64,000 bases of DNA from Elusimicrobiota bacterium (lineage in GTDB: Bacteria; Elusimicrobiota; Elusimicrobia; F11), in NCBI GenBank assembly GCA_044221725.1, contig JBGAON010000002.1:481455-545454 (forward strand). Direction: 5' to 3'. The position numbers and the translations under genes are program-made. How positions within the stretch are numbered: the first letter of the stretch is position 1; each line of letters opens with the position of its first letter. Positions 2,673 through 39,206 of this stretch are shown one piece after another. The notes beneath the pieces were generated by a model. That model worked only from the letters and a program-made list of their open reading frames with translations, was not told the origin of the DNA and did no database searches.

Positions 2673-2716
2673 AAACTGCCCTTTTGTTATAATCCAGCCT
2701 TCTTGCTTCTCGATAC

Positions 2717-5179: not shown

Positions 5180-5193
5180 AAAGGGAGAAAGAC

Positions 5194-7702: not shown

Positions 7703-7722
7703 ATAAATTCAAAGGAGATTTT

Positions 7723-8193
7723 ATGGAAACATCAGGAGCCAAACCAACGGTTATTCGATCGCTTGACGTGTTGAAGATTATGGAAGCCATTCCACATCGA
7801 TTTCCCTTTTTGCTTGTGGACCGGGTCGATGTAATTGAAGAAAACAAGATAGCAATCGGCCGCAAGTGTGTCACGATGAACGAACATTTCTTTCAAGGGC
7901 ATTTTCCAGGCCATCCGATTATGCCGGGCGTCCTTATTGTTGAAGCGCTCGCTCAAACAGCGTGCGCACTGATGTTTTCGCAGCCGGAATTCAAAAATAA
8001 GCTGGCGTTTTTTATGGGACTTGAGGAAGTAAAATTCCGTCGTCCCGTCGTTCCGGGGGACGTGCTCGAACTTCACATCGAAATGCTGCGCGCGGGTTCG
8101 CGTGCGGGAAAAGCGAAAGGCACCGGAAAAGTTAACGGCGAAGTGACCACCGAAGCCACTTTTTCCTTTGCGATCGCGGACCGAGCCCACTAG
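7723..8193 (+). CDS. fabZ: 3-hydroxyacyl-ACP dehydratase FabZ
   Basis: 156 aa hot-dog fold with motifs [11 protein letters not shown] and [19 protein letters not shown]. Confidence 0.95.
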
Positions 8194-8199
8194 TTCTTC

Positions 8200-14666: not shown

Positions 14667-14667
14667 A

Positions 14668-21111: not shown

Positions 21112-22197
21112 ATGATTAATATGAGCGATCTTCTATTAATGATGGTGCAGAAACGCGCATCGGATCTTCACCTCACCTCGGGCACCTCACCAATGCTGCG
21201 CATCGATGGACAAGTGACGGCAACGCCGTTCGAAAAATTAACGCCGGATATTTGTCAGCGTTTAATTTACTCGTTGCTTACCGATCAACAACGGCAAGTT
21301 TTCGAAGCAAAAAGCGAACTTGATCTTTCCTTCGGCATCAAGGGCGTGGGGCGCGTAAGAATGAATGTATTTCGCCAACGTGGCAGCGTCGGGGCTGCGT
21401 TGCGGTCGATCCCATCGACGTTTATGACGTTTGAAGAACTCGGAATGTCGGATATTGTTTATGAAGTGGTCGGACGTCCCCGCGGGCTTGTGCTTGTGAC
21501 AGGGCCCACCGGATCGGGAAAATCGACCACGCTTGCTTCAATGATTGATTACCTTAATGAAAACCGATCAGGACACATAATCACAATAGAAGACCCGATC
21601 GAATATATTCACCATCATAAAAAGTGCATCATCAACCAACGCGAAATCGGACAAGACACAACAAGTTTTCCTTCGGCTTTAAAATACGTGCTTCGCCAAG
21701 ATCCCGACATCATCCTTATCGGCGAAATGCGAGACCTCGAAACGATTCAAGCAGCGATCACAATTGCGGAAACGGGTCACTTGGTGTTCGCCACGCTGCA
21801 CACAAACGATGCAAAGTCGACCATCAACCGCATCATTGATGTTTTTCCAGCACATCAGCAAAATCAGGTCCGTAACCAACTATCACTGGTTCTTAAGGCT
21901 GTATTCACACAGTCGCTTATTCCTCACGCGAATGGGACCGGGCGCGTTCTCTGCTGCGAGATTTTGATCGTTACTTCCGCCATCGAAAATCTTATCCGCG
22001 AAGGGAAAGTTGAACAGATTCCGATGCTCATGCAAACCGGTGGAAAATTTGGCATGCAAACCTTCAATCAAGCACTTGCCGATCTCGTCGCGAAACGAAA
22101 GATTTCTCAAAAACAAGCCGTGGAACACTCGTCGGACCCGGAAGAACTGATCAAATTGATTAACCAACGCACCGGCGCAGGTGCGACGAGAAGTTAG
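21112..22197 (+). CDS. pilT: Twitching motility retraction ATPase PilT
   Basis: 361 aa PilT/PilU-type hexameric ATPase with Walker A GPTGSGKST and the motif AHLVFATLHTNDA. Confidence 0.92.
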   Translation: MINMSDLLLMMVQKRASDLHLTSGTSPMLRIDGQVTATPFEKLTPDICQRLIYSLLTDQQRQVFEAKSELDLSFGIKGVGRVRMNVFRQRGSVGAALRSIPSTFMTFEELGMSDIVYEVVGRPRGLVLVTGPTGSGKSTTLASMIDYLNENRSGHIITIEDPIEYIHHHKKCIINQREIGQDTTSFPSALKYVLRQDPDIILIGEMRDLETIQAAITIAETGHLVFATLHTNDAKSTINRIIDVFPAHQQNQVRNQLSLVLKAVFTQSLIPHANGTGRVLCCEILIVTSAIENLIREGKVEQIPMLMQTGGKFGMQTFNQALADLVAKRKISQKQAVEHSSDPEELIKLINQRTGAGATRS

Positions 22198-22205
22198 GAG
22201 GATCT

Positions 22206-23429
22206 ATGCCAGCTTTTGCATACAAAGCGAAGATGCTTACGGGGGGAATGACCGAAGGGCTCATTGAAGCGTCCGACCAAAAAGCTGCGGTCGATCAACT
22301 TCGTGCACAAAAGCTCGTACCACTCGAAATCAACGAATCCGCGCCACCATTGTTTGAAAAAATCATGGCGTTTTTGCCGTTCAAGCCGACCGTTAAAGCA
22401 AAAGAACTTGTGCTTTTTTCTCGTCAACTTTCCACATTGGTGTCGGCCGGTGTCCCGCTCGTGCAGGGTCTCTCCATTCTTGAAGAACAAGTTGAAAGCA
22501 AGCTTTTCAAAAGCATCGTTCACCAAATAAAGGATGACATTGAAGCCGGGCAGTCCATTACGGACGCGCTTCGTAAACACCCCAACGCTTTTGAAGAACT
22601 TTATGTTTCAATGATCAAGGCCGGCGAAGTCGGCGGTATTCTCGATATTATTCTCGAACGTCTCTCGGCTTACTTGGAAGCAGCTGAAAATTTGAAAGGG
22701 AAAGTCAAAGGCGCGATGATGTATCCCTTGGTTGTCAGTATCATTGCAACGGCCGTCACGCTCTTCTTGTTGATGGGCGTAATCCCAACATTTTCATCCA
22801 TCTTCGCGGGATTTGGCGCGGAGCTGCCGTGGATCACTCAGCTCCTTATTAATGTGTCGTTTGGTTTGCGGCGCTTTTGGTTCTTGGTATTGGGCGCGCC
22901 CGTTATCGGGTTTGTTGTTTTGAAACAATACGCAAAGACGGAAATCGGACGTCGCAATCTCGACTCGGTTATGTTGAAACTCCCCATTTTCGGTGTACTG
23001 CTAAAGAAAGTTGCTGTTGCAAAATTTACACGCACGCTGGGCACCTTAATTAAATCTGGTGTTCCCATTCTGTCCGCTCTGGAAACGGTTGCAAAGACGT
23101 CCGGCAATCGTGTGATTGAAATCGCTATCATGACCGCTCGCGAATCCGTCAAGGAGGGCGAACGCATCGCCATCCAATTAAAAAAGGCCAATATTTTTCC
23201 GCCCATGGTTATCCAGATGGTCGCGATTGGAGAAGAAACTGGTAATCTCGATACCATGCTTGCCAAAATTGCCGACTTCTACGACCAAGAAGTTGACACC
23301 GCCGTTAAAGCCCTCACTTCCATGATTGAACCGATCATCATCGTGGTTATGGGCGTCGTGATTGGATTCATTGTTATCGCGATGTTCTTGCCAATGTTCG
23401 AACTCGGAAGTTTGGCGGGCCGCGGCTAA
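22206..23429 (+). CDS. pilC: Type IV pilus platform protein PilC (GspF family)
   Basis: 407 aa with duplicated GspF domains and three or four TM helices. Confidence 0.92.
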   Translation: MPAFAYKAKMLTGGMTEGLIEASDQKAAVDQLRAQKLVPLEINESAPPLFEKIMAFLPFKPTVKAKELVLFSRQLSTLVSAGVPLVQGLSILEEQVESKLFKSIVHQIKDDIEAGQSITDALRKHPNAFEELYVSMIKAGEVGGILDIILERLSAYLEAAENLKGKVKGAMMYPLVVSIIATAVTLFLLMGVIPTFSSIFAGFGAELPWITQLLINVSFGLRRFWFLVLGAPVIGFVVLKQYAKTEIGRRNLDSVMLKLPIFGVLLKKVAVAKFTRTLGTLIKSGVPILSALETVAKTSGNRVIEIAIMTARESVKEGERIAIQLKKANIFPPMVIQMVAIGEETGNLDTMLAKIADFYDQEVDTAVKALTSMIEPIIIVVMGVVIGFIVIAMFLPMFELGSLAGRG

Positions 23430-23453: not shown

Positions 23454-25454
23454 ATGCGGCCCGCTCCTTCGTCTCTGCTGTTAGCGCTGTATGCTGCCGT
23501 ATTGACGACAATTATTCCTAGTTATTTTCTTGCCTATCCAATTCCGGATTTCCTAGCAAAAATCTCGTCGCTTCTTGGCGGAGTGCTCATATTTGTGCAA
23601 GCGCTTTGCTTGGGTCGCTTAATCCTGACGCGATTTGTGCCAGCGTCCCAACTTCAAGACAAAAGTAATGCGTTTCGATTGGTCTGTTCGGTATGGCTTG
23701 GAGTAGGCACAATGGGATTCGCCATTCTCATTCTCGGGTGGGCTATTCCGGGCGTGCTCACACCGAAGCTACTGCTCTTTAATATTGTCCTCACAATTCT
23801 AGTTTTGGTCCAAGCAAAGTCATTGCTAACCGGTTCATGCCGCCTGTTGCCAATGGAAATCGGTCTCGCATGGAAAGAAATTGTCATCTGCGGAATCATC
23901 GGTTGTGGATTGCTCGTCACGTTTGTTACGTGTTTCTCTCCGGTTACCTATTACGATTCCCTCGTGTACCATCTTGCCCTGCCGGGACTGTACGATCGGA
24001 TGGGAAGGGTCCAAATGATTCCGTCAAATCTTTATTCTTTTTTCCCGGCGTCCATTGAAATGATTTTCTTGTATGGCATAAATCAATTCCCAAATCCGGA
24101 GTACGTTATCAATGTATGGCAATGGCTCGTCACAGGCGCCTTAAGTATCGCGGTCGCCGAATGGACCTTTGAGCTTTGCGGAAAGAGGGCAGCGATAATT
24201 TCACTCGTTCTCTGGTGGACAATGCCCGCCGTGCTTTTGCTTACCACCGGAGCGTACGTCGATCTGCCGCTCGGCGGGTTCGTTTTCCTTAGCATGCGGT
24301 GTTTTCAATTTGGTCGCAATGAAAGCAACGCCAAATGGCTTGTTTTAAGTGGGCTCTTTTCCGGATTCGCAATGGCAACCAAATACACCGGCGCTGTTTG
24401 TCCAATTATTCTTACGTCCGTTTTGCTTTTCGATTTCGTTCGGTTCAAGAGAATTTCGATGCGCTTGGTGTGTTTGTTTGTCTTTTCAGCCGCTGTTCCT
24501 ATTGTGCCGTGGCTTGTCAAAAATTGGATGGCGATTGGAAACCCGGTTTTTCCTTTTCTTTACAAATGGCTCGGAGGCGCCGACGGTTGGACGGCCGAAA
24601 ACGCTGCAGGATATTTTCGGCAACTGACGGACTACGAAATGAAAAGCAGACTTTTTTTTGAATTGGCGCGTGCCCCTTGGAGTCTTGCCACGTCCGCAAC
24701 ACGGTTCGGCGGCGGATTTGACGTGCTCGGAGATTTCGGTTGGCCCTTGATCCTATTTTCCGCGCCGCTCGCCATTTTCTTATCTTATCGAACCGCGTCA
24801 GTGCGGTTTTTGACTCTGTTCAGTTTGATTCAATTTTTCATTTGGTTCTGCACCAAGCCGGTGTTCCGATTTCTTGTTCCATCTCTGCCCGTGGCGATTT
24901 TGTTAAGTGCAATTGCGATTAATCGGTTGACGAGCGACCCGCGCGCGCCCGTTCGCATTATCAGCTATTCATTGATCGCTCCGTGGTTAATTTCAAACTT
25001 TTTCCTGTACTGGTTTATTGTCCAAGGACTTCAACCCTTCTCGGTTTCGCTTGGCTACGAAACTCGAAACGAATATCTTTCTCGGCGTTTAAATTTTTAT
25101 CCCGTATTTGAACGCCTAAATTTAATGGATTCCCAAGAGAAGGTGTTTGTATTGGGGGAACAAAGAACCTTCCATTTATCGGTGCCGTTTGTTGCATCGA
25201 ATCTGTTTTCCGTTTCTCCTCTATCGTCGGTCAGCAACCGGGCACGGACCGATGAAGAAATCCTTAAATTTCTCGATTTGAACAAGATCTCATTCCTTCT
25301 TATTAATGAAGGGGAAATCGAGCGACTCGGAGGATACCGCAAATTTGGCTTTACAAATGAGGGCGAGCGCGCGCTGCGAGGGTTCGTTTCGCGTCACACC
25401 TCGCTAACTTTCGAGAATCGACGCGTTAATTTGTATCGAATCAACAACTATTGA
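23454..25454 (+). CDS. Large polytopic membrane protein, candidate GT-C-fold glycosyltransferase (ArnT/PMT-like) or O-oligosaccharyltransferase
   Basis: 666 aa with at least 12 predicted TM helices over about 500 aa, then a roughly 150-aa soluble C-terminal domain. There is an acidic loop motif after a TM helix ([12 protein letters not shown]), reminiscent of the DE/DD loop-1 motif of GT-C enzymes. It sits between pilC and pilA. The family assignment was made by eye only. Confidence 0.4.
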
Positions 25455-25479
25455 CAGCAAATTTTCCAGACGTTATACT
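25451..25479 (+). promoter_or_regulatory. Near-consensus sigma70 promoter of the pilin gene (TTGACA, 17 nt spacer, TATACT)
   Basis: -35 TTGACA at 25451-25456, a 17-nt spacer, then -10 TATACT at 25474-25479. This lies about 60 nt upstream of the pilA ATG, which is preceded by an AAGGAGG Shine-Dalgarno at 25524-25530. Confidence 0.6.
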
Positions 25480-25540
25480 GAAGCCATTGCAAGTAAAGCG
25501 CTTTAACACGCGATTACTTACAAAAGGAGGTCGACGTAAA

Positions 25541-26008
25541 ATGAGGAAAATGCTTAAAACAAAAGGGTTCACGCTCATCGAACTTATGATCGTTGTCGCT
25601 ATCATAGGTATTCTGGCCGCTGTGGCCATTCCTAAGTTCGCTGATCTCGTGACCAAATCCAAAGAAGCGTCCGTAAAGGGAAACCTAGGGTCTGTACGTA
25701 GTGCCGTTAGCATCTACTACGGCGACCTTGAAGGTCAATATCCGGCGAATCTTGCCGACGGCCTTGGAACGGGTGGCCGATATATGCCGCTTGTGAACGG
25801 TGTCGCCAGTCTTGGGACGATGGAAATTCCAAAAACGAGCGTGGGGGCCCCGGGCCATCCTTGGGGGAACGTTATTAACACCGAGGTCAGAGCAGCCGGA
25901 GCAGGTTCAATTGACACATCTGCGTTTCTATACAACTCGAATGATGGTAACGTTATGGTTGACTGTAGTCATCTCGATACCCGCAGCAGTCCTTGGTCCT
26001 CGTATTAA
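25541..26008 (+). CDS. pilA: Type IVa major pilin (PilA-like)
   Basis: The ATG at 25541 follows an AAGGAGG RBS. The class III leader is MRKMLKTKG, cleaved before [22 protein letters not shown], giving Phe+1 and Glu+5. The mature protein is about 146 aa with a single Cys and a Ser-rich C-terminal tail (TRSSPWSSY). Confidence 0.9.
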
Positions 26009-26036
26009 GGTTACAAGCTATTAAGAATCAAAATGA

Positions 26037-26072
26037 GAGGCACCCTTCAGAAGAAGGGTGCCTCTTTTTTTT
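26037..26072 (+). terminator. Rho-independent terminator after pilA
   Basis: A perfect 12-bp stem (GAGGCACCCTTC / GAAGGGTGCCTC) with a 4-nt loop is followed by a T9 run, directly after the pilA stop. Confidence 0.85.
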
Positions 26073-26888
26073 ACATTGATTTATTTCATTCTGTTTCTGT
26101 TCGGGCTGGAGTTCGGCAGCTTCGCGAACGTTTGTATTTATCGCTGGCCTTTAAACATGTCGATTGCTTATCCCATTCGTTCCTATTGTCCTTGGTGCAC
26201 AAGCCAAATTTCCTGGTACCACAACATTCCTGTTGTTAGCTATATTTTTCTTAAAGGTCATTGCGCAAAATGCGGGTCCACAATCGCGATGCGGTATCCA
26301 ATCATCGAACTGTTAACGAGCGCGTTATGGACGGCGTTTGGATTTGTTGTCGTGAAATCTGGCCAGACCTTTCCGATTCCCTTTTTAGCCTCTCTACTCG
26401 CAACCCTATTCATTATTGTTGTAACGACGGCCACAGATATTGACTGGAAAATAATTCCCAACGAAGCAACGTTTTTTCTTTTGGTAATCGGAATCTTGTT
26501 TGCTCCATGGAATACGTTTCTTGGTGGAGACGCAATTTTTACGCGGATCATTCACGCCGTGGCGGGCGCGGCGGCCGCGTCAATTCCTATGTGGGGAGTT
26601 TCCATCATCGGAAAAAAAATTCTTGGTCGGGATGCGTTTGGTGGCGGTGACATCAAGTTGCTTGCGTCGTTTGGAAGCATTCTCGGTTGGCAAAGTGTTC
26701 TCGGTGTCTTGTTATTCGCTGCCATCCTCGGTGGCCTTATCGCGATCATCGGATTGCTCTCGCATCTTTTAAAGCGCAGAGAGTATATTCCGTTTGGCCC
26801 GTTTCTAAACATTGCGTGCACCGCCGAAATATTTTTTCGCTGTTCCGGGCATTCCCTCGTCGATATTGGAAGAGTTTTTTTCTTATGA
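26058..26888 (+). CDS. pilD: Prepilin peptidase PilD (A24 family)
   Basis: N-terminal TM helix, a CxxC...CxxC zinc motif (CPWC...CAKC) and a multi-TM A24 peptidase body. The start is GTG at 26058 inside the terminator stem, or alternatively TTG at 26076. Confidence 0.88.
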   Translation: MPLFFTLIYFILFLFGLEFGSFANVCIYRWPLNMSIAYPIRSYCPWCTSQISWYHNIPVVSYIFLKGHCAKCGSTIAMRYPIIELLTSALWTAFGFVVVKSGQTFPIPFLASLLATLFIIVVTTATDIDWKIIPNEATFFLLVIGILFAPWNTFLGGDAIFTRIIHAVAGAAAASIPMWGVSIIGKKILGRDAFGGGDIKLLASFGSILGWQSVLGVLLFAAILGGLIAIIGLLSHLLKRREYIPFGPFLNIACTAEIFFRCSGHSLVDIGRVFFL

Positions 26889-26911
26889 AAAGACAAAAAA
26901 AAGAAAATCCC

Positions 26912-26940
26912 TTGACATTAAATGGGTGTGAAAATAGACT
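26912..26940 (+). promoter_or_regulatory. Putative sigma70 promoter for pilMNOPQ (TTGACA, 17 nt spacer, TAGACT)
   Basis: -35 TTGACA at 26912-26917, a 17-nt spacer, then -10 TAGACT at 26935-26940, in the 94-nt pilD-pilM gap. Confidence 0.45.
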
Positions 26941-26982
26941 TCCTAGTGAAATAACGCATCGATTTCTTGCAGAAAAAAACGA

Positions 26983-28101
26983 ATGAAACTCGATATCAAG
27001 AACCTAAAATTGCCATCGCTTTCTTTCTTGCGTTCGAAAGATACGCTCGGAATCGATTTGGGTTCCACCTCGCTAAAGATCGTTCAGATATCCGACCGCC
27101 GACTTGTTCGCTGGGCTTACAAAGAGTTGGATTTAAAAGATGCGGGCCCCGATACACAAGCCGCCGACCGAATGGCCACGCTAACACAAATGCTGCAAAC
27201 GTTTTTTTCTGAAGAACGAAAAGCGCCGAAGGTCGGCGCCATCTCCGTCAGTGGCAATTCTGTTATCGTTAGATACGTGAAACTTCCGAAGCTCACCCGA
27301 GCCGAACTCGAAAAAACAATTCAGTTTGAAGCAGAGCCCTATATCCCATTTGCAATTCCAGAGGTAAACATGGGTTTTCACATTCTTGGCGATGTCGTCG
27401 AAGATGGCCAACCCAAAATGGAAACGGTTCTCGTGGCCGCGAAAAAGGAACTTATCGACCAGCGTTTAAACGTTTTAACTTCTGTCGGAGTGCGCCCGGT
27501 CATCGTGGATGTGGATGCGTTCGCCATGGAAAGCGCTTACGCCCTGAGTCAGGGAGGAATGCAATCCCAGGAAACAGCGTTGTTAATCAACATTGGCGCG
27601 AACGTGACCACCATGATTATCATGGAAAATGGGCTTTCGCGGGTTGTTCGAGACGTCTTCATCGCGGGCAATACGATAAACAAATCATTACAAAGAATTT
27701 TTGATTGTTCCTTCGAAGAAGCTGAGAAACTAAAACGCAAAGGACAAATTCTCGTCACGCCAGATGAAAAAGAAGCCACCTTGGCCCAAGATGACCAGGA
27801 TTCGCTGCAAATCTCAAACACGATCGTCACGGTGATGAAGGATCTCGTCTCGGAGATTCAGCGATCCCTCGATTTTTTCTTGTCCCAAAATCCTGATCGC
27901 CAAGTGAACCGTATCATGCTCTGCGGCGGCTCCTGTGCGATCAATGGCCTGGACCGGTATTTTTCCCAGGAATTGCGATTAAATGTCGAGCTTTTTGATC
28001 CGTTCGCGAGTCTCGTTGGATCGAACCTTCCGGATCCCAGTCTCAGGCCGGCATTTGCGATCGCGGTTGGACTCGCTTCACGAACAGAGGGTGACATTTG
28101 A
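26983..28101 (+). CDS. pilM: Type IV pilus assembly protein PilM (actin-like ATPase fold)
   Basis: 372 aa with PilM-type N-terminus LGIDLGSTSLKIVQI. Followed by pilN-pilO-pilP-pilQ. Confidence 0.9.
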   Translation: MKLDIKNLKLPSLSFLRSKDTLGIDLGSTSLKIVQISDRRLVRWAYKELDLKDAGPDTQAADRMATLTQMLQTFFSEERKAPKVGAISVSGNSVIVRYVKLPKLTRAELEKTIQFEAEPYIPFAIPEVNMGFHILGDVVEDGQPKMETVLVAAKKELIDQRLNVLTSVGVRPVIVDVDAFAMESAYALSQGGMQSQETALLINIGANVTTMIIMENGLSRVVRDVFIAGNTINKSLQRIFDCSFEEAEKLKRKGQILVTPDEKEATLAQDDQDSLQISNTIVTVMKDLVSEIQRSLDFFLSQNPDRQVNRIMLCGGSCAINGLDRYFSQELRLNVELFDPFASLVGSNLPDPSLRPAFAIAVGLASRTEGDI

Positions 28102-28682
28102 TCCTTATTAATTTATTACCACCGGAGTACGCGGCTGCCCAACAAAAAAAGGAACAACAGGTGGTTTTGGGATCGGTTTGCGGACTCGTTGTTTGCTTTT
28201 TACTTTTATTCTGGTTTGTAGAAGCGCGGAAAGCGGCAAGACTTGAGACCCAGATCACCGAGGCAGAAGCGGAACTCCGGAAGTACCAAGCGATTATTTC
28301 ACAGATCGAGTCGATTGAAACCAACAAAAAACAGCTGACAGCCAAACGCGATGTGATCCGAAATCTTAACCGCAGTCGTTTAATCTATCCGGTATTTTTT
28401 GAAGATCTGCTTCCGATTATTCCCTCTGACGTCTGGGTCACAAACGTTCAAATAAACGACCAGTCCGGTTCCATGAGGGTCTCGATGAATTCAAATGCGT
28501 TGTCCAACTTTGCGTTGGCGACGTGGCTCACCAATCTTCAACAGTCGACACACTTCAAGGACGTTGAATTGACCTCACCAATCTCCTATACGACTGCCGA
28601 CAATGGCAGCCAGACATTGAGTTTTTCAATCTCCTGCGCGTACCAACACCAGGGGCCCTTCCCGCTTCAGGAGTTCAACTAA
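28098..28682 (+). CDS. pilN: Type IV pilus assembly protein PilN
   Basis: 194 aa with the N-terminal motif INLLPPE, a single TM helix and a coiled coil. The start overlaps the pilM stop. Confidence 0.85.
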   Translation: MILINLLPPEYAAAQQKKEQQVVLGSVCGLVVCFLLLFWFVEARKAARLETQITEAEAELRKYQAIISQIESIETNKKQLTAKRDVIRNLNRSRLIYPVFFEDLLPIIPSDVWVTNVQINDQSGSMRVSMNSNALSNFALATWLTNLQQSTHFKDVELTSPISYTTADNGSQTLSFSISCAYQHQGPFPLQEFN

Positions 28683-29245
28683 TGGGAAAGCTTTCTAAAC
28701 AACAGCAACAAATGATCGTGGCCGGTCTTTTGTTTCTCGTGGGTGGCGGATACATTTATTGGAATTACATGCTGAAACCCACTCTTGAAAATATTCGGAC
28801 TCGCGAAGCAAAATATCAGGACTTGCTTGCAAAAATAGATTCGGCCGAGCGACAGGCGCGACGGTTGCCAGCGCTTCAAAATGAATTGGCCAGCCTCCAA
28901 TTGGAATTGGCTTCGCTCGAGAAACAGCTCCCGAAGGACAAAGATCTTCCAAATATCATCCGTACGCTTACCCGAGAAGCCATTCAAGAGAATTTGCAAT
29001 TCGTTCAACTCGATCCTCAAAAGCCATCCAAGCAGCAATATTTTGAGATTCTTCCGTTCAACGTTAAATTTTCGGGTACGCTTCACGCGCTCGCGAGGTT
29101 TTTGGCTTCTCTCGGGCAGCAAGACCGAATTTTCCAAGCTCAAAATGTAATGCTGGTTCCGGGGGGGAACCAATCGGACTCTTCTCAAGGAATCGTTTCT
29201 TTGAGTATCTCATTAACCATTCAAACGTATGCGTATGCTGGATAA
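28682..29245 (+). CDS. pilO: Type IV pilus assembly protein PilO
   Basis: 187 aa with an N-terminal TM helix, a coiled coil and a PilO-like periplasmic domain. Conserved operon position. Confidence 0.8.
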   Translation: MGKLSKQQQQMIVAGLLFLVGGGYIYWNYMLKPTLENIRTREAKYQDLLAKIDSAERQARRLPALQNELASLQLELASLEKQLPKDKDLPNIIRTLTREAIQENLQFVQLDPQKPSKQQYFEILPFNVKFSGTLHALARFLASLGQQDRIFQAQNVMLVPGGNQSDSSQGIVSLSISLTIQTYAYAG

Positions 29246-29714
29246 AAAACGAACCGTTCTGCTCTTATTAATCGCGACGAGCATCATCGGCTGCGGCAAG
29301 AAAGCAAAGGTTGCTCAGGCACCGACTCCCGCGTCAACGCCCATTCCGACGCCCACTCCTGTATCTCAAGAATTGAAAGAGAAGCCCGTGTACGTTTATT
29401 CTGGAGACCGGTTCAGAGATCCGTTTATGCCGGCGGGGCAATCCGCGAACTACCAGCCAGATGCTGTTTTCGATCCGCAACGCGCTTCTGTCAAAGGAAT
29501 TATTTTTGGAACCGACTATAAATCGGCGGTTCTTATGGTTGGAGGCACCGGAAGCTACTTTGTGAAATCCGGAAAGATTTTCGACATCATGGGAAAAACA
29601 GTGGAAGGATATTCGGCGAAAATTTTCGTTGATAAAGTTGTTTTGCTCGGCGAAGCCGACAACGTGTTTGAACTGAAAATAAAGAACACCGATGAGGAGG
29701 CAAAAGCATTATGA
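29229..29714 (+). CDS. pilP: Type IV pilus assembly lipoprotein PilP
   Basis: 161 aa with a lipobox (LLIATSIIGC), a Pro/Thr-rich linker and a C-terminal beta domain. Overlaps pilO by 17 nt. Confidence 0.8.
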   Translation: MRMLDKKRTVLLLLIATSIIGCGKKAKVAQAPTPASTPIPTPTPVSQELKEKPVYVYSGDRFRDPFMPAGQSANYQPDAVFDPQRASVKGIIFGTDYKSAVLMVGGTGSYFVKSGKIFDIMGKTVEGYSAKIFVDKVVLLGEADNVFELKIKNTDEEAKAL

Positions 29715-31450
29715 AGATTTATCAAAAACCTTTCCTCGCGATATTTTTGATATCGCAAATCGTCCTTGCAAATTTGCAAGGCGATCCGTCCTCCGGAGTT
29801 CCCGCGCTCACGAGCCTAAAGGCCGAGGGCGACAAGGTCACGATTAGCTTGAGTCAACTGATGCCCTATGACGTGTTCACGCTTACGTCTCCGCAACGTC
29901 TCGTGGTGGAAATCCCTGGAGTCCTTTACAAGGCAGGCATTAGCAAGAAGAACGTGGAAGGGGGGCTGGTGCGTCGCATCCGAGGCTATCAATTTAAGGA
30001 AAATCCTCTTATTTCGCGCGTCGTGATCGATCTCTCCTATCCCGTCGACTACAAAACCACCGCGGAAAACAACGAGATCGTTCTCTCGATGACGAAAAAT
30101 GCGAACGCGGTTAACGACGATTCGGAGAAGAAACCCCTCTCTGCCAAAGGCGAACGCACGCGCAAGCAGCGCGATCTGTTGGCCAGCCTTCCCAAAGAAG
30201 AAGTGACACTCGATTTTGAAGGGGCCGATATTCGCGACGTGATTCGTCTGATGGCGGAAACAAGCAACATTAATATTATTTTCGGTTCCGAAGTCGCCGG
30301 AACAATCGCGGTTCACCTGAAGAAGGTTCCGTTTGATGAAGCGTTTAGTACGATCATGAATCTTAAAGGACTGGTTCCGACTCAGCTCGGAGCAAATATT
30401 TTGCGCGTGACGACGCCGGATATCCTTCAGAAGGAACGTCAGAAAGCCGTCATGTTTACGAAAACCATTCCAATCAATTATTTAAAAGCAGATGACATGA
30501 TGAAGCACATCCAAGCCGTCATGACATCAGCGGGTCGAAAAGGAACGTTGACGGTAGCATCCGAAAACAACAGTCTCGTTATTACGGATTCGGAGGAAGG
30601 CATTCAGCAAGCCGAACGATTAATCGCGCAGCTCGATAGAAAGCCAAAACAGGTGATGATTGAAGCGCGTATTGTCGAGATTAACTTGAACAATGGTTTT
30701 GACATGGGCGTTCAGTGGGAATATGCAAATCAGTCCATTGATACCAACGCAGCAGGAACCGTGATCAATGGAGTTAAAGAAATCGGCGGAATTACAGACG
30801 ACGATGCTCTTTCGCGAATTCAACATTCGTTTGACGGAGGCACCACAAAATTTGGAGCGTTTACACCGCCGAACGGTACCGGCGTTGCGTTGCCTGGTCC
30901 TACCAGTGCCGCGATAACGTTTGGAATCGTAAAAGCGAACCGGATTCTCGACGTCAGCTTGCAGGCCTTGGTAACACAAAGCAAAGCGAAAATTTTGTCC
31001 GCACCAAAAGTCGTAACGATCAATGGAGAGTCCGCCAAAATTCAGGCGGTTCAAGATATTCGATTCAAGACATCGACGGTTTCGAACGGCGTTGTTTCCA
31101 GCGATTTTAAAACGGTGAGCGCCGGTATCATTCTTACGGTCACTCCCACGATAAATGCCGAAGATCGCATTACTTTGAAAATTAACCCGGAATCAAGCTT
31201 CCCGACCCAAGAGAGCACGGATGCGGGTCCTATCATTCGTACGCGCACAGCCCAAACAACGGTTGTGATCCGCGATGGCGACACGCTGGTCATCGGCGGC
31301 CTCATCGACGATCAAGACACGAAAGGGGTGAACAAAGTTCCGTTGCTCGGAGACATCCCAATTCTTGGCGCGTTCTTCCGCTCAACCACCACGAAAAAGA
31401 TACGTAACGAGCTTCTCGTGTTCGTCACACCGCGAATCGTTCGAGAATAA
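29711..31450 (+). CDS. pilQ: Type IV pilus secretin PilQ
   Basis: 579 aa with a signal peptide, an AMIN-like N-terminal domain, N0/N1 domains and a C-terminal secretin domain with the motif VPLLGDIPILGAFFR. Confidence 0.92.
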   Translation: MKIYQKPFLAIFLISQIVLANLQGDPSSGVPALTSLKAEGDKVTISLSQLMPYDVFTLTSPQRLVVEIPGVLYKAGISKKNVEGGLVRRIRGYQFKENPLISRVVIDLSYPVDYKTTAENNEIVLSMTKNANAVNDDSEKKPLSAKGERTRKQRDLLASLPKEEVTLDFEGADIRDVIRLMAETSNINIIFGSEVAGTIAVHLKKVPFDEAFSTIMNLKGLVPTQLGANILRVTTPDILQKERQKAVMFTKTIPINYLKADDMMKHIQAVMTSAGRKGTLTVASENNSLVITDSEEGIQQAERLIAQLDRKPKQVMIEARIVEINLNNGFDMGVQWEYANQSIDTNAAGTVINGVKEIGGITDDDALSRIQHSFDGGTTKFGAFTPPNGTGVALPGPTSAAITFGIVKANRILDVSLQALVTQSKAKILSAPKVVTINGESAKIQAVQDIRFKTSTVSNGVVSSDFKTVSAGIILTVTPTINAEDRITLKINPESSFPTQESTDAGPIIRTRTAQTTVVIRDGDTLVIGGLIDDQDTKGVNKVPLLGDIPILGAFFRSTTTKKIRNELLVFVTPRIVRE

Positions 31451-31506
31451 ATTCTCTTTCGTTGCTCTTCAATTCGGACGAATTTCTCAGCGGAAAACGA
31501 CTGCTG

Positions 31507-31515
31507 TGTTATAAT
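31507..31515 (+). promoter_or_regulatory. Possible extended -10 promoter element (TGtTATAAT) upstream of the GT2 gene
   Basis: TGT followed by TATAAT at 31507-31515. The -35 is weak. It ends 11 nt before the ATG, implying a very short leader. Confidence 0.3.
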
Positions 31516-31526
31516 CGCCCGCCTGC

Positions 31527-32462
31527 ATGAACCCACTAATATCCATTATTATTCCGGTCTTTAACGAGCAAGGAAATATTGTTCCGCTGTTTCAATCGAT
31601 CACAAAAGCGTGCTCGGCTATAAATTATGAGATTGTCGCCGTTGATGATGGATCGAGCGACGATTCGGCGAACGAATTGCTCGCGATGGCGTCACAAAAC
31701 TCCAAGATTAAGGTGGTTCGTTTGAAGCGAAATTTTGGACAAACGGCCGCATTGGCGGCCGGCATCGACCATTCGAAAGGAGATGTCATTGTTCCGTTGG
31801 ACGCCGATGGCCAAAACGATCCCAAAGACATTCCGGCGTTAATCGAGAAACTGAACGACGGATTTGATGTCGTGTCCGGTTGGCGAAAAGATCGCAAAGA
31901 CACTTTTCTCTCGCGGCGACTTCCGTCAATGATCGCAAATAAAATAATTTCGTCAGTGACCGGTGTGCGTTTGCACGATTACGGTTGCTCATTGAAAGCG
32001 TACCGTCGCTCGAATATCGCAGGCATCCAATTGTACGGAGAAATGCATCGATTCCTTCCAGCATGGTGTGTTTGGCAGGGGGGAAAGGTGGCAGAGATTC
32101 CGGTGGATCACCACCCGCGAACCGTGGGAAAATCAAAGTATGGAATCATGCGAACGTTTAAGGTGCTCATTGATTTAATAACGTTGAAATTTTTTAGCGG
32201 CTACTTATCCAAGCCCAGCCATCTGTTTTCCGGAACCGGTCTTGTTTTTTCGTTTTTCAGCATTGGAAGTGCTGCGTTTGCGGTGATCGACAAGATTGGT
32301 CCCGACCGATTTCCCAAGTTTCGCATTCCGCTGTTGTTGCTGGCCGTGTTCTTCGGACTTGGTTCGATTTTTTTGGTGCTCATGGGGTTGCTGGCGGAAC
32401 TGCTTGTTCGTCTCTATTTCCAAGTTCGCGATCAAAAGCCTTATCGCCTCGTGAATGAGTAA
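31527..32462 (+). CDS. Polyprenyl-phosphate glycosyltransferase (GT2; ArnC/GtrB/DPM1-like)
   Basis: 311 aa GT-A domain with IIIPVFNE, DDGSSD and a DxD-like PLDADGQND motif. Two C-terminal TM helices, the hallmark of Und-P-sugar synthases. Confidence 0.85.
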   Translation: MNPLISIIIPVFNEQGNIVPLFQSITKACSAINYEIVAVDDGSSDDSANELLAMASQNSKIKVVRLKRNFGQTAALAAGIDHSKGDVIVPLDADGQNDPKDIPALIEKLNDGFDVVSGWRKDRKDTFLSRRLPSMIANKIISSVTGVRLHDYGCSLKAYRRSNIAGIQLYGEMHRFLPAWCVWQGGKVAEIPVDHHPRTVGKSKYGIMRTFKVLIDLITLKFFSGYLSKPSHLFSGTGLVFSFFSIGSAAFAVIDKIGPDRFPKFRIPLLLLAVFFGLGSIFLVLMGLLAELLVRLYFQVRDQKPYRLVNE

Positions 32463-33420
32463 AATTTTCCGCATTTCCATCGGTCTTGTTATTAGTTTTG
32501 TTTTCCTCGCAATGGCCGCCCGCGGTTTTGATTTTGGCGTGCTCGTCACCGAATTGAGAAACGCCTCTTATATTTGGTTCCTTCCGGCCATCGCGATCTA
32601 CGTTCTAAACATGACGCTCCGTTCGCTTCGTTGGCGCACGCTGCTTTCTCCTCAGAAACAGATCCCAATGAAAACCGTTATTCCTACCTTGATTGTTGGG
32701 TTCTTCATGAACGCAATTCTGCCGGCAAGGGCGGGGGAGTTTATTCGTGCGTTTTCGATGGCTCGGAAGACAAATTTGCCGTCCGGCTCGGTGTTGGGGT
32801 CGGTCGTGCTCGAACGGTTGACCGATTTTTGCGGACTTGCGTTAGTAATCGCCATCGCGTCCCGCCTGTTGCCGTGGGACAAGTTGCCGATCGTTCCCAT
32901 TGTTTCGATTGTGGTTGCCGGTGTTATCGCTTGTTCCACAATGTTTTTTGTTCAGCGACGGCTAAAAAACAGAGCCTTATCCTCATCGTCCATACTCAAC
33001 AAAATCCAAACTTTGTTTTTGCAAGTAACGTCCGGTTTCTCGGCACTCCGATCCTTTTCGAAAGTGAGCCTGGTTATGCTTTTGTCATGGACCGTCTGGA
33101 TAAATGAACTATTGATGCCCTTTTTTATTTCACGAGCCATGCATCTTAATTTAACCTTCTTTGAATCCGGCGGACTGCTGACCGGGCTTAGTTTCGGCGT
33201 TATGATACCGGCGGCGCCCGGATTTATCGGAACGTACGAGTTCTTCGGAAAGACCGTTCTCGAAATGCTGGGGAAACCCGGTTCCCAAGCGCTTGGCTAT
33301 GTCGTGGTTTTGCATTTTTTCCACCTCTCCATGGTGACTTTGTTGGCGCTTTTTTGTTTCCTTTACGAATCCTCGTTTAGAAGTGAATCTGTTCCAAAGG
33401 GGGAACCGCAAACAACATGA
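32455..33420 (+). CDS. Flippase-like domain membrane protein (MprF-type LPG_synthase_TM / UPF0104)
   Basis: 321 aa with about 8 TM helices and family motifs LRSLRWRTLL and GFFMNAILPARAGEFIRA. Overlaps the GT2 stop, suggesting translational coupling. Confidence 0.75.
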   Translation: MSKIFRISIGLVISFVFLAMAARGFDFGVLVTELRNASYIWFLPAIAIYVLNMTLRSLRWRTLLSPQKQIPMKTVIPTLIVGFFMNAILPARAGEFIRAFSMARKTNLPSGSVLGSVVLERLTDFCGLALVIAIASRLLPWDKLPIVPIVSIVVAGVIACSTMFFVQRRLKNRALSSSSILNKIQTLFLQVTSGFSALRSFSKVSLVMLLSWTVWINELLMPFFISRAMHLNLTFFESGGLLTGLSFGVMIPAAPGFIGTYEFFGKTVLEMLGKPGSQALGYVVVLHFFHLSMVTLLALFCFLYESSFRSESVPKGEPQTT

Positions 33421-34451
33421 AACTGGACAACTCGGTTGTCGCAGCTCTCGCCTTTCTTTCAGCTCTTGATGTTGCTTTGTTGGTCACACCTCTCGCTCGC
33501 TTCCTTGCGAAACGATTTAATATTTACGACGTTCCCCGCACAGCGGTAAAAACGCACAAAGAACCGGTTCCTTACCTTGGCGGGACTGCAATTTTCGTTG
33601 GATTTGCGTTATCGCTCGTGCTGATTCGCTTTCTCACGTCCTTTCCAACAGGAACATTGCGGTCGTTACGCGGAATTATGGCCGGTGGTACGATCGTGTT
33701 CGCTCTCGGAATATTCGATGACTTAAAAACCGATGGCCTTCATTACCGCACAAAATTTTTCTTTCAGATCATTGCCGCGTGCATGGTGGCGCATTTTGGC
33801 GTGCGAATAAAATTCATCAATCCGCCTTGGTTCGCCTATGTGGTCACCATTGTTTGGATTGTGGGCATCACGAACGCGTTTAATCTCATCGATATTATGG
33901 ATGGGTTGGCGTCGGGTGTGGCGTTTATCGCAACGATGGCCTTTGTGTTCATTGCATTACCGACGGAAGAACTCTACGTAAACTTGGGGGCCGCCGCGCT
34001 CGGCGGCGCGGCGCTGGGTTTTATGCCTTACAATCTTTCGAAGCGGCTGCGAATATTTATGGGGGATGGTGGCAGTCTTTTCCTTGGTTTTGTGTGCAGC
34101 GCGCTCGCGCTGGGCACCTCATACGGACATCAGAACGAATGGGGAATTTTGGCGCCGCTCATGATTTTGTGTCCCGCCATATACGACACCTTGCTCGTGT
34201 TTATCGCCCGAATTCGTCGAGGGGTTTCTCCGTTTATTGGATCCAAAGACCATTTCGCGCTTCGACTTGAAATTCTTGGCTGGAAACGTCCGAAAATTTT
34301 GGTTTATACCCTTGGAATGTCCGCATTCTTGAGTCTGGGCGCTTACGCCGTAACGCGAGTCCCGTCCGGATTTGAGTTGGTCGTTTATTTTTTCACGATA
34401 CTTCTGTTGTTGGCTCTCAGCGCCTATCTGTCCAAAGCCAAAGTTCAATGA
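33417..34451 (+). CDS. Undecaprenyl-phosphate sugar-1-phosphate transferase (GT4 family, MraY/WecA-like)
   Basis: 344 aa polytopic membrane protein with WecA/MraY family motifs (NAFNLIDIMDGLA, GDGGSLFLGF). Confidence 0.8.
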   Translation: MKLDNSVVAALAFLSALDVALLVTPLARFLAKRFNIYDVPRTAVKTHKEPVPYLGGTAIFVGFALSLVLIRFLTSFPTGTLRSLRGIMAGGTIVFALGIFDDLKTDGLHYRTKFFFQIIAACMVAHFGVRIKFINPPWFAYVVTIVWIVGITNAFNLIDIMDGLASGVAFIATMAFVFIALPTEELYVNLGAAALGGAALGFMPYNLSKRLRIFMGDGGSLFLGFVCSALALGTSYGHQNEWGILAPLMILCPAIYDTLLVFIARIRRGVSPFIGSKDHFALRLEILGWKRPKILVYTLGMSAFLSLGAYAVTRVPSGFELVVYFFTILLLLALSAYLSKAKVQ

Positions 34452-35746
34452 AACCGGTTCTCATCGTTGGCGGAGGCCTGGCCGGAGTCTCAACGGCCTA
34501 TCATTTAAAGAACCGACCGATCGTTTTGGCCGAAAAGGAAAATGAAGTGGGTGGCACCGCCCGCTCTTACCATGTTGGGAAATTCACGTTTGACATCACG
34601 GGCCATTTGCTTCATCTGCACTCAGACTACACGAAGAAATTAATTCCAAAACTTCTTGCCAACAATTTTTTCACGTGTCAACGAAACGCGAAAGTATTCT
34701 CGAACGGCCGTGTGACAAAATTTCCATTTCAGGCCTACACAAACGGACTGCCTTCTTCCGTTGTTGATGAATGCGTACTCGGTTTTTTTGACGCTTTTCT
34801 AACGAGCGCGCACAAAAAACCTTCCTCGGATCCCGATTTCCGCACGTGGTGCTTTGAAACATTTGGCAGCGGAATAGCCAAACATTTCATGATTCCTTAC
34901 AACGAAAAGCTCTACCAAGTTCGTGCAACTGCTATGACCACCGATTGGTGCGGCCCGTTTGTTCCGATGCCGAAACTGAAGGACGTGGTTCGAGGGGCAC
35001 TGGAGAACGAAGGAGACAATTTCGGTTACAACACCTCGTTCATTTACCCAAAAAACGGCGGTATTCAAGTGTTGGCGCAGGCGCTGGCAAAACGGGTCGA
35101 GGGAATTCAGCTAAACACAACGGTCGATCGGATCAATCTGCGCGAGCGAACCGCAACTTTATCGAACGGTAAAACCGTTTCTTATTCGTCGCTGGTCAAT
35201 ACGATCCCCCTACCGGAATTGCTGAAAAAGATTTCGCCGCTACCACGGTCAATTAAACAAGCGTCAAATCAGCTGCGATTCAGTTCCATCTGGTGCGTGA
35301 ACATTGGCGTTCGACGCCCGCGTATTTCGGATGCTTCGTGGATTTATTTCGCCGAAAAACACTTTCCTTTTTACCGGGTTGGATTTCCTATGAATTTTAC
35401 GCCGCACGTGGTTCCCAAGGGATGCAGCTCCATGTACGTGGAAGTTCCGATGCGATCAAATCGCAACAAATCCAAACCCGAACTTCTCGCAGATATCCGG
35501 AAAGGACTTGTGCGCGCTGGAATTCTTAAGCCCTCCGACAAATTCGTGATTGTACAATTCATACCTGTGAAATACGCCTATGTGATCTACAATCGCGACC
35601 GCCGCGCTGCTCTCAAAAAAATATTTTCTTTCCTCAATAGAAATAGCATCCAAACAATTGGTCGTTATGGTGCTTGGAAATATTCGTTCATGGAAGAAGC
35701 GATACTTGATGGCAAGAAAGCTGCCGAAAAAATCTTAAATGGCTGA
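34448..35746 (+). CDS. FAD-dependent oxidoreductase (amine-oxidase / UDP-galactopyranose-mutase-like fold)
   Basis: 432 aa with an N-terminal dinucleotide-binding motif (VLIVGGGLAGVSTAY...EKENEVGG) and a C-terminal GR..xWKY closing motif. Embedded among glycosyltransferases. Confidence 0.6.
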   Translation: MKPVLIVGGGLAGVSTAYHLKNRPIVLAEKENEVGGTARSYHVGKFTFDITGHLLHLHSDYTKKLIPKLLANNFFTCQRNAKVFSNGRVTKFPFQAYTNGLPSSVVDECVLGFFDAFLTSAHKKPSSDPDFRTWCFETFGSGIAKHFMIPYNEKLYQVRATAMTTDWCGPFVPMPKLKDVVRGALENEGDNFGYNTSFIYPKNGGIQVLAQALAKRVEGIQLNTTVDRINLRERTATLSNGKTVSYSSLVNTIPLPELLKKISPLPRSIKQASNQLRFSSIWCVNIGVRRPRISDASWIYFAEKHFPFYRVGFPMNFTPHVVPKGCSSMYVEVPMRSNRNKSKPELLADIRKGLVRAGILKPSDKFVIVQFIPVKYAYVIYNRDRRAALKKIFSFLNRNSIQTIGRYGAWKYSFMEEAILDGKKAAEKILNG

Positions 35747-36884
35747 CGGCCGAACAACCGTTGTTCATCTAATTACGCTGCTCGAGTTCGGCGGTGCCCA
35801 GGGCAACACGATCTATACCGTTGAACATCTGAATCCGAAAAAGTTCGATGTTTATCTCTGGAGCGGTCGCGGGGCGTACTGGGACAGATATGTTGAGCAA
35901 AATCCGGAACTAAAAAAGCGAACGAGATATTTCAAGAGTCTCGTCCGTCCAGTGAATCCCCTATGGGATTTCATCGCCGTTTTTTCGTTGTGGCGCGCGC
36001 TCGAGAAATTGAAACCCGCCATTCTTCACACGCATTCTTCCAAAGCCGGAATTGTCGGGCGAATAGCGGGTTGGCTCGCCGGCGTTCCCGTCATCATCCA
36101 CACGTTTCACGGATTTGGGTTTAATGATGAGCAACGGGCCCTCACGCGTTGGTTTTTCGTTTGGCTCGAGAAAGCAATGGCGCCGCTCGCAACAAAATTA
36201 ATTTTCGTTTCCGAAGCGAATCGCCGAACGGCGCAAGAGCTGAAAATCGGCCGAGACGGCCAATACGAATTAATTCGAAGCGGCGTTCCGTTGACGGAAA
36301 TTCGCCGGCACTCGAAAACAAAAAAATCTGATTATCGCGACCTTGGTCCGGAACAATCGCCTTGGATCGTAACGATAGGCGCGTTCAAACCACAAAAGAA
36401 TTTGTCCGATTTTCTGATCGCGGCTAAAAAGATCCGCGAAAGCTTTCCGACGGCATTTTTTATCATGTTGGGCGACGGCGAACTTCGTTCGCAACTGGAA
36501 AGCGAAGTCGACAGCCTTGGCTTGAGCGGGCATATTGTCATGCCGGGTTGGCGGCAAGATGCCACGCGAATACTCGCGGCCTCCGATGTATTCGTGATGA
36601 CATCGTTGTGGGAAGGACTTCCGCGAGCGTTGGTGGAAGCACTTGCCTTGGAGAAACCATCGGTTTGTTACGACACGGATGGTGTCCGGGATATTCTCGG
36701 CGCCGAAGATGGGAGCCTCGTTTCCCGACACGATACTTCTCGGCTCGCCGAAAAGGTGGTGTCACTTCTATCGAATAACGCGCTGTACGCAAAAGTTGCA
36801 TCCCAAAGCGCGCAACGGATTGGTCGCGATTTCGATATCGACGAGATGGTTATTCAACAGGAACGGCTCTATAATTCCCTTTAA
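35739..36884 (+). CDS. Glycosyltransferase, GT-B fold (Glycos_transf_1 / CAZy GT4)
   Basis: 381 aa with a C-terminal GT1 domain and an E-x7-E-like region (LWEGLPRALVEALA). Confidence 0.8.
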   Translation: MADGRTTVVHLITLLEFGGAQGNTIYTVEHLNPKKFDVYLWSGRGAYWDRYVEQNPELKKRTRYFKSLVRPVNPLWDFIAVFSLWRALEKLKPAILHTHSSKAGIVGRIAGWLAGVPVIIHTFHGFGFNDEQRALTRWFFVWLEKAMAPLATKLIFVSEANRRTAQELKIGRDGQYELIRSGVPLTEIRRHSKTKKSDYRDLGPEQSPWIVTIGAFKPQKNLSDFLIAAKKIRESFPTAFFIMLGDGELRSQLESEVDSLGLSGHIVMPGWRQDATRILAASDVFVMTSLWEGLPRALVEALALEKPSVCYDTDGVRDILGAEDGSLVSRHDTSRLAEKVVSLLSNNALYAKVASQSAQRIGRDFDIDEMVIQQERLYNSL

Positions 36885-39205: not shown

Positions 39206-39206
39206 A

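Follow-up and report, generated by a model that had tools for sequence, protein, structure and literature searches.

Three-component periplasmic glycosylation of glycans, as in GtrA/GtrB/Gtr glucosylation of O-antigen and in the ArnC/ArnEF/ArnT and CsbB/GtcA/YfhO systems, combines loading of a sugar onto undecaprenyl phosphate (Und-P) in the cytoplasm, a small membrane flippase, and a glycosyltransferase (GT) of the GT-C type with an acidic first periplasmic loop. Such systems are established for glycans and include the pentofuranose system PPPRS/MATE/GT136 (PMC11127046). Here, we describe a comparable gene set in a 64,000-nt stretch from an Elusimicrobiota bacterium (GCA_044221725.1, contig JBGAON010000002.1, positions 481,455–545,454; hereafter the window, numbered from its first letter). 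A gene for a 666-residue GT-C protein of the DUF8201/PMT_2 family (23454–25454, + strand) lies between the type IV pilus genes pilC and pilA, and five further glycan genes follow pilQ. We lean towards the reading that the GT-C protein is the periplasm-facing transferase of an envelope-glycan pathway conserved across the phylum, and that its acceptor is probably not the pilin specifically. Most likely, the module is a three-component periplasmic glycosylation set of a galactofuranose (Galf)-linked envelope glycan.

Several described systems resemble this locus in part. Bacterial protein O-glycosylation by a GT2 and a GT-C enzyme (actinobacterial Ppm1/Pmt; streptococcal GtrB/PgtC2 and PgfS/PgfM1; PMC12041528) likewise draws on an Und-P-sugar donor from a GtrB/PgfS-like GT2 and shares the PMT_2 match, but acts on Ser/Thr-rich disordered regions, of which the pilin here has none. 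TfpW, the D-arabinofuranosyltransferase of Pseudomonas aeruginosa group IV pilins, is encoded downstream of pilA, shows DDx in its first loop, ends in a tetratricopeptide repeat (TPR) domain, and depends on PPPRS, DprE1 and DprE2 (bioRxiv 10.1101/2020.04.19.049825). The GT-C gene described here also adjoins the major pilin gene, and TfpW’s lipid-linked furanose donor genes are sometimes clustered with pilA. However, by TfpW’s own described features the two are set apart: the gene here is upstream of pilA, the first loop holds a YDS motif and no DDx, the C-terminal domain is alpha/beta in the structural model and has no Pfam TPR match, and the partners are a GT2, a WecA-like enzyme and a UDP-galactopyranose mutase (UGM) homolog. 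Genes for D-arabinofuranose supply are missing, with no DprE1/2 or UbiA-type gene among the Pfam-annotated genes of the window. Unlike TfpO/PilO/PglL and WaaL, the protein has no Wzy_C domain (PF04932; no Pfam match). The parallel with tfpW and tfpO that an earlier, sequence-only reading of the window had drawn was thus not borne out. Finally, the gene content resembles the mycobacterial arabinogalactan locus, ordered aftB-ubiA-phosphatase-glfT2-glf: there too a GT-C, a polyprenyl-phosphate sugar-phosphate transferase, a GT2 and a UGM stand side by side, for lipid-linked furanose chemistry at the outer face of the membrane. That locus differs in having a UbiA-type in place of a MraY/WecA-type transferase and a bacterial in place of a eukaryote-type UGM, and the host here is a diderm with lipid A genes, in which nothing points to a galactan or an arabinan.

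On its predicted structure, the 666-residue protein is a GT-C-fold glycosyltransferase of the GT-C_A class, and not a transporter or polymerase. PMT_2 and PMT are its only Pfam matches (PMT_2 at 38.5 bits versus a cut-off of 26.1); PMT_2 is named for protein O-mannosyltransferases. DUF8201 (PF26626) is a precomputed match in most of its relatives, and its own record holds PF13231 only. Homologs in the homolog search all came from Elusimicrobia metagenome-assembled genomes (MAGs), and the family profile matches 8,367 clusters at 50% identity (E ≤ 1e-30). Neither the single sequence nor a 40-sequence profile matched anything in a PDB sequence search. An AlphaFold2 model built from 40 homologs (pLDDT 91, pTM 0.92) has exclusively GT-C enzymes as Foldseek neighbors, namely ArnT (E 8e-8), then STT3, AglB, PglB, ALG9/12, DPY19, Pmt4, AftA, AftD and Emb, with ArnT, ALG12 and STT3 the closest structures. 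These results confirm the GT-C fold that the sequence-only reading had proposed, together with its count of at least 12 transmembrane (TM) helices: the model, hydropathy and the positive-inside rule give ~15, with the N-terminus inside. The same three lines of evidence agree in placing in the periplasm the YDS loop (residues 160–214), a second large loop (362–427) and the soluble C-terminal alpha/beta domain (527–666, ~140 residues), as that reading had expected for the YDS loop and the C-terminal domain. The first four TM helices form an extension before the canonical TM1. The acidic first-loop motif is also as predicted, spanning residues 162–173, where 40 homologs share P163, Y167, D168, S169, L170, Y172 and H173 without exception; E202 is likewise invariant. 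D168 sits in the first canonical periplasmic loop, the place of the conserved acidic residue by which GT-C_A enzymes are recognized. From the polyprenyl-phosphate-sugar-synthase-like GT2 genes that adjoin it, the enzyme is predicted to use a polyprenyl-phosphate-linked sugar. The public annotation of the gene (P0001, 580 residues) begins 86 codons too late and leaves out 23454–23711; the N-terminal TM helices absent from it are conserved in homologs (G54 and G83 invariant).

The five genes after pilQ overlap each other by 4–8 nt, so their translational coupling is real, and between the first two genes, for which it had been proposed from the sequence, the overlap is 8 nt. The first (31527–32462, +) encodes a GtrB/ArnC-type GT2, a predicted Und-P-sugar synthase (Pfam Glycos_transf_2, E 5e-34) with two C-terminal TM helices (residues 236–257 and 264–300). 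It matches the NCBIfam ArnC model at positions 8–306 of 316 with an E of 1.7e-58, but at 198 bits, far under the cut-off of 529; its E-value against the PgfS model is 1.8e-38. The second (32455–33420, +) encodes an LPG_synthase_TM membrane protein (Pfam E 8e-49; TIGR00374), which resembles the flippase domain of MprF and is a candidate flippase for a lipid-linked sugar. The third (33417–34451, +) encodes a polyprenyl-phosphate N-acetylhexosamine-1-phosphate transferase of the WecA/MraY superfamily (Pfam Glycos_transf_4, E 4e-30), the predicted initiator of a glycan linked to undecaprenyl diphosphate (Und-PP); its match to TIGR02380 (E 4e-27) reaches 95 bits, far under the cut-off of 326, and a PDB sequence search returned nothing at E ≤ 0.01. 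The fourth (34448–35746, +) had been labeled an FAD oxidoreductase. The flavoprotein, of the Amino_oxidase type, is indeed there, and phmmer against the PDB identifies it as a eukaryote-type UGM homolog (Aspergillus fumigatus UGM 3uka, E 1e-48; Trypanosoma cruzi UGM 4dsg, E 5e-42 over residues 4–429), and the bacterial-type Glf model TIGR00031 matches only marginally. In the alignment, with A. fumigatus numbering, the equivalents of the His-loop GH, R327, Y419, R447 and Y453 align and that of the flap residue R182 does not. As a UGM homolog the protein would supply UDP-galactofuranose (UDP-Galf), which ties the block to Galf supply. Last comes a Leloir glycosyltransferase of the GT4 family (Pfam Glycos_transf_1; 35739–36884, +), and a GT4-family gene follows UGM in many relatives at 41–50% identity. 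Ahead of the block, a perfect extended −10 element, TGTTATAAT (31507–31515, +), was read from the sequence; it ends 12 nt before the GT2 start codon (31527), which has no Shine-Dalgarno sequence. TGTTATAAT could be a separate promoter of the five genes, independent of pilMNOPQ and giving a nearly leaderless transcript.

The evidence that carries our reading comes from the gene neighborhoods of the GT-C family. We scanned relatives at one genome per species (231 found), kept 80 loci, each with flanks of at most 10 kb to either side, and mapped the window’s proteins onto them by tblastn. Nine loci (L001–L009) form the window’s own clade, clade A, and 71 lie outside it; denominators below 71 count the loci with enough sequence. 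Outside clade A, a WecA-like gene begins within 500 nt 3′ of the GT-C gene in 64 of 65 informative loci, UGM comes next after it in 57 of 58, and a short DPM1/PpgS-like GT2 of 250 residues lies directly 5′ of the GT-C gene in 54 of 59. Across the phylum the short GT2 keeps 58–80% identity, well above the ~30% of the GT-C protein, and in L081 and L082 the genes of this core operon overlap. The functional tie between the GT-C gene and the post-pilQ genes that had been suspected from the window alone is thereby upheld. Best matches of the short GT2 are the Dol-P/polyprenyl-P hexose synthases PpgS, AglJ and haloarchaeal DPhHxTase, all weak (48–62 bits versus cut-offs of 325–375). Reading it instead as a GlfT-like galactofuranosyltransferase acting on Und-PP-linked N-acetylhexosamine ranks below the polyprenyl-phosphate-sugar-synthase reading, given these matches and the fact that a GtrB/ArnC-type GT2 takes its place in the window’s clade. 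In clade A the short GT2 is absent, and the GtrB/ArnC-type GT2, usually with the LPG_synthase_TM protein, precedes WecA-UGM after pilQ. There the GT-C gene, at 36–50% identity, always follows pilC.

We interpret these arrangements as the result of a rearrangement of one module. The ancestral core, seen in most relatives, would have been the tight operon short GT2, GT-C, WecA-like, UGM. In clade A, the GT-C gene would have moved once to the pilC–pilA junction; a single relocation fits the monophyly of the clade-A GT-C proteins in a neighbor-joining tree (no support values). The short GT2 would have been replaced by the GtrB/ArnC-type GT2 and the LPG_synthase_TM protein, ahead of WecA, UGM and the Glycos_transf_1 gene, so that the module now brackets pilA, pilD and pilMNOPQ. 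In a tree of WecA and UGM, the window falls near the few lineages with the pil operon upstream of an intact cluster. A MAG labeled Ignavibacteria (L014) holds the same module with one extra gene, which suggests that the module moves as a unit. The divergence of the GT-C protein (42–50% identity versus 73–94% for PilB/T/C) was considered as a signal and set aside as uninformative, PilD and the flippase-like protein diverging equally fast.

Whereas the synteny is observed, the roles in the mechanism that we envision follow from family membership. UGM would make UDP-Galf; the GT2 would load a sugar, plausibly Galf, onto Und-P, since no other Leloir-type transferase of the four-gene core could take a UDP-sugar like UDP-Galf. 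The LPG_synthase_TM protein would flip the lipid-linked sugar, and the GT-C enzyme would transfer it in the periplasm by way of the loop with the invariant Asp168. The acceptor would most probably be a WecA-primed, GT4-extended Und-PP-linked glycan, or an envelope glycoconjugate made from it (O-antigen-like or a general glycan). A general envelope glycan is the likelier acceptor because the invariant residues of the GT-C protein, including those of the C-terminal domain, are the same with and without pil genes in the neighborhood. A three-component periplasmic set of GT2, flippase-like protein and GT-C, as the sequence-only reading had envisaged, is plausible, and the likeness to the known systems extends to the GtrB/ArnC architecture of the GT2 and the GT-C_A fold. 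Four differences stand out: the candidate flippase is an LPG_synthase_TM protein, where theirs are of the GtrA/SMR or MATE type; the GT-C protein belongs to DUF8201 and begins with four additional TM helices; a WecA-like enzyme and UGM are constant companions of the module; and in clade A 6 kb of pilus genes stand between the GT-C gene and its partners, whereas a GT2 gene adjoins the GT-C gene in 54 of 59 relatives.

The pairing of an LPG_synthase_TM protein with this kind of GT-C recurs at L083, which supports the flippase-like protein as a GT-C partner: a distant GT-C relative there (4962–8489, 835 residues, PMT_2 with C-terminal TPR) has an LPG_synthase_TM gene directly upstream, along with radical-SAM and methyltransferase genes. 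In L011, LPG_synthase_TM adjoins a GT2. L036 encodes a 745-residue fusion of an N-terminal GT2 and a PMT_2 GT-C domain (6915–9152), located between pilQ and the short-GT2/GT-C operon and linking both enzyme classes in one protein. Upstream of the short-GT2/GT-C operon, many Elusimicrobia (L081, 2722–9239, and a further locus) have GDP-heptose-type genes (SIS isomerase, GHMP kinase, HAD phosphatase, nucleotidyltransferase) or others for nucleotide sugars. The same regions encode another GT-C with a PMT_2 match, together with a membrane protein resembling LA_3751/3752. These upstream genes make the cluster one section of a larger locus for glycans, which includes several transferases of the periplasm.

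Several points weigh against this interpretation. The DUF8201 family is biochemically uncharacterised and the roles given here are predictions; the acceptor in particular is predicted from gene context. Und-P-Galf is a reasonable guess for the donor, yet we know of no precedent for a polyprenyl-phosphate-Galf donor, and a full-text literature search aimed at one found none. Searches on GT-C, galactofuranose and undecaprenyl phosphate together returned nothing relevant, as did those on Elusimicrobia pilus or pilin glycosylation, and literature searches found no paper describing the DUF8201 GT-C family or the pil-interleaved arrangement. No Wzx, Wzy, WaaL or O-antigen ABC exporter was seen in the window, and by fold the GT-C protein is equally close to the oligosaccharyltransferases STT3 and AglB as to ArnT. 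The remaining points concern the pilus. In clade A the pilin gene follows the GT-C gene in seven of eight informative loci, a place kept even at 36–50% identity between GT-C proteins. Only 24 nt separate pilC from the GT-C gene; because the gap is so short, pilBTC and the GT-C gene probably form one transcription unit, and such co-transcription fits a pilus-related role. In addition, a Wzy_C protein, mostly with a C-terminal TPR, is encoded directly after pilQ and before GT2-WecA-UGM in L003 (13247–15073), L006 (11601–13205), L008 (18265–20175) and L011 (1980–3836). With such genes after pilQ in relatives, the neighborhood of pil and glycan genes may not be accidental.

Pilin O-glycosylation itself, the role first proposed from the sequence, is unlikely in our view, although it withstands the evidence better than the other alternatives. 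The clade-A GT-C enzyme would act in the periplasm to move an Und-P-linked sugar, provided by the GT2 and flippase, directly onto PilA Ser/Thr residues, a functional parallel to TfpW or the streptococcal GtrB/PgtC2 and Pgf systems; GT-C O-glycosylation of pilins and other proteins is known (bioRxiv 10.1101/2020.04.19.049825; PMC12041528). In its favor are the placement beside pilC and pilA just described, the Wzy_C+TPR genes after pilQ in L003, L006 and L008, a pil operon next to the glycan cluster in L011, L036 and L065 as well, and TPR domains in distant GT-C relatives. However, those three are the only non-clade-A loci, out of 71, with pil genes within 10 kb of the GT-C gene; the other 68 keep a GT-C protein with the same invariant residues, C-terminal domain included. 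No pilin-like open reading frame (ORF) occurs within 5 kb of the GT-C gene in any of the 71. Outside one clade, then, the GT-C gene is never next to a pilin gene, and co-occurrence across relatives, which the sequence-only reading had offered as a check, shows the pil-embedded position confined to a single monophyletic group. Even within it, L003 retains the GT-C gene at this spot but lacks pilA there, so that pilD comes next. None of the TfpW hallmarks is present. The evidence does not support the pilin as the specific target; the earlier caveat that the target could equally be lipopolysaccharide (LPS) or another surface molecule has become the better-supported reading.

The pilin and its surroundings bear on the same question. 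PilA (25541–26008, +) is a major type IVa pilin (Pfam N_methyl; NCBIfam PilA_Myxo and GspG N-terminal matches) and, by a motif scan, the sole pilin-like ORF in the window; its real start is the ATG at 25541, with AAGGAGG upstream. The prepilin has 155 residues and the mature protein 146, with one Cys. At 15.8% Ser+Thr it is not unusually rich in hydroxyl residues, which counts against it as a substrate, as does the Tyr at its end. The sequence-only reading had noted a Ser-rich tail, and TRSSPWSSY does close the protein; however, this is no generic Ser-rich tail but a conserved motif, C[ST]H.DT[KR][GS][ST].W[ST].[YFN], common to six related pilins, and the conserved hydroxyl residues of its DT[KR][GS][ST].W[ST] part are a point for pilin modification. 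With Tyr as the last residue, the parallel drawn to P. aeruginosa 1244 pilin and its C-terminal Ser breaks down. A TfpO-type C-terminal Ser site was ruled out, the last residue being Y, F or N in all seven pilins compared and no Wzy_C gene being present in the window. A near-consensus sigma-70-type promoter, TTGACA-17-TATACT (11/12; 25451–25479, +), has a −35 hexamer that overlaps the GT-C stop codon and lies 55 nt 5′ of pilA; it is the best such site in the region, though promoter-like sites here are pattern matches whose total number is not above chance. It probably drives pilA on its own. No sigma-54 promoter was seen by eye upstream of pilA, the best candidate being this sigma-70-like one. 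Directly 3′ of pilA stands a strong intrinsic-terminator-like hairpin of 14 pairs followed by a T-run (26035–26066, +), and another promoter-like pattern match lies 5′ of pilM (26912–26940, +). With its own promoter-like site and terminator, pilA looks like a transcription unit of its own, and the GT-C gene like the last of the pilBTC unit; this separation speaks against pilin O-glycosylation.

It is improbable that the GT-C protein acts as an oligosaccharyltransferase or ligase, moving a short Und-PP-linked glycan, built by the WecA-like enzyme and the GT2 or GT4 with UDP-Galf, en bloc to protein or lipid A-core, with GT2-GT-C-WecA-UGM as a complete minimal pathway. An Und-PP-forming WecA-like enzyme is its constant neighbor, and the window has no Wzy_C/WaaL-type gene to do the task (no Wzy_C homolog by tblastn over the 64 kb with five Elusimicrobia Wzy_C queries). 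However, the protein lacks a WWDxG-type motif, which N-oligosaccharyltransferases have in the C-terminal domain; in Pfam it matches only families in which the enzymes characterised so far take polyprenyl-monophosphate sugars; the short GT2 looks like a polyprenyl-P-sugar synthase; and the window’s GtrB/ArnC-type GT2 with a flippase-like protein is the signature of Und-P-monosaccharide systems. Relatives with a Wzy_C ligase-type gene, moreover, still retain the GT-C gene. Besides the Wzy_C genes after pilQ, of which those in L003, L006 and L008 belong to the window’s clade and which are absent from the window and L002, a Wzy_C-family gene lies between UGM and the GT4 gene in L016, L025, L028, L036, L037, L053 and L065. 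If a pilin or general O-oligosaccharyltransferase is sought, the Wzy_C(+TPR) protein is a priori the stronger candidate, ahead of the GT-C protein. Least probable of these alternatives is an ArnT-like role, in which the GT-C enzyme decorates lipid A phosphates or core sugars from an Und-P-sugar supplied by the ArnC-like GT2: ArnC is the best NCBIfam match of the GT2, the complete set of lipid A genes is found ~10 kb upstream and a TPR-bearing distant relative sits beside lpxB-msbA, but the window has no ArnA/B/D-type genes for 4-amino-4-deoxy-L-arabinose, the GT-C protein has no NCBIfam ArnT match (only a weak LIC_10190_fam one, 46 bits versus a cut-off of 100) and only 13–14% identity to ArnT in structural comparison, and its conserved WecA-like and UGM partners have no role in known lipid A decoration.

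The remaining genes of the window place the module in its setting. Those listed by the sequence-only reading are all present where it had located them. The gene array is co-directional and runs recG, coaD, pta, pilB, pilT, pilC, GT-C, pilA, pilD, pilMNOPQ and the five glycan genes. PilB (19351–21108, +; Pfam T2SSE, E 1e-135) and PilT (21112–22197, +; T2SSE, E 5e-49) are type IVa pilus ATPases, and PilC (22206–23429, +; T2SSF, E 5e-67) is the platform protein. After pilA come the prepilin peptidase gene pilD (26058–26888, +; true start probably later), pilM (26983–28101, +), pilN (28098–28682, +), pilO (28682–29245, +), a gene for a PilP-like lipoprotein with no Pfam match (29229–29714, +) and the secretin gene pilQ (29711–31450, +). 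Positions 39–13646 hold the outer-membrane and lipid A cluster, with genes for TamB, BamA, Skp, LpxD, LpxC, FabZ, LpxA, LpxI, a GFO/IDH/MocA oxidoreductase, LpxB and an MsbA-like ABC exporter; this full set, MsbA included, marks the host as a diderm with LPS. The oxidoreductase gene is inserted between lpxI and lpxB, a position reminiscent of GnnA-type enzymes of GlcN3N-lipid A pathways. Between thiG and recG lies an ORF of 381 residues (14569–15714) with no Pfam match at E ≤ 1e-5, which overlaps the thiG ORF, as listed, by ~100 nt. Directly 3′ of the glycan block, a dCache-HAMP-PAS histidine kinase gene (36950–39205) overlaps one for a response-regulator-GGDEF-EAL protein (39165–40901), so it is a cyclic di-GMP signalling pair, and not a PilS/PilR sigma-54 pair, that adjoins the pilus and glycan genes. 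Farther along, 18 kb from the WecA-like gene, a glycosyltransferase gene of the WecG/TagA/CpsF family (54940–55737, E 5e-60) overlaps the end of smc. Und-PP-GlcNAc is the substrate of such enzymes, so the window would encode a second WecA-dependent step.

Taken together, what is new here is that one Elusimicrobia clade interleaves its type IV pilus operon with a Galf-linked, three-component-like module whose GT-C enzyme comes from an uncharacterised family. To our knowledge, there is almost no experimental glycobiology of the Elusimicrobia. DUF8201 is a large uncharacterised GT-C family, which now has a defined, phylum-conserved gene set of GT2, GT-C, WecA-like enzyme and eukaryote-type UGM. 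If the donor is Und-P-Galf, the range of three-component periplasmic glycosylation would widen from pentofuranoses to include a hexofuranose; mammals lack Galf, and its pathways attract attention. We see only a slim chance that the DUF8201 enzymes are the first users of such a polyprenyl-phosphate-linked hexofuranose and were also recruited in clade A to decorate the major type IV pilin. For pilus biology, the locus carries a caution: finding a GT-C gene beside pilA does not on its own indicate that the pilin is glycosylated. The recurrent neighborhood of pil, GT-C and Wzy_C+TPR genes in the window’s clade is nevertheless worthy of note.

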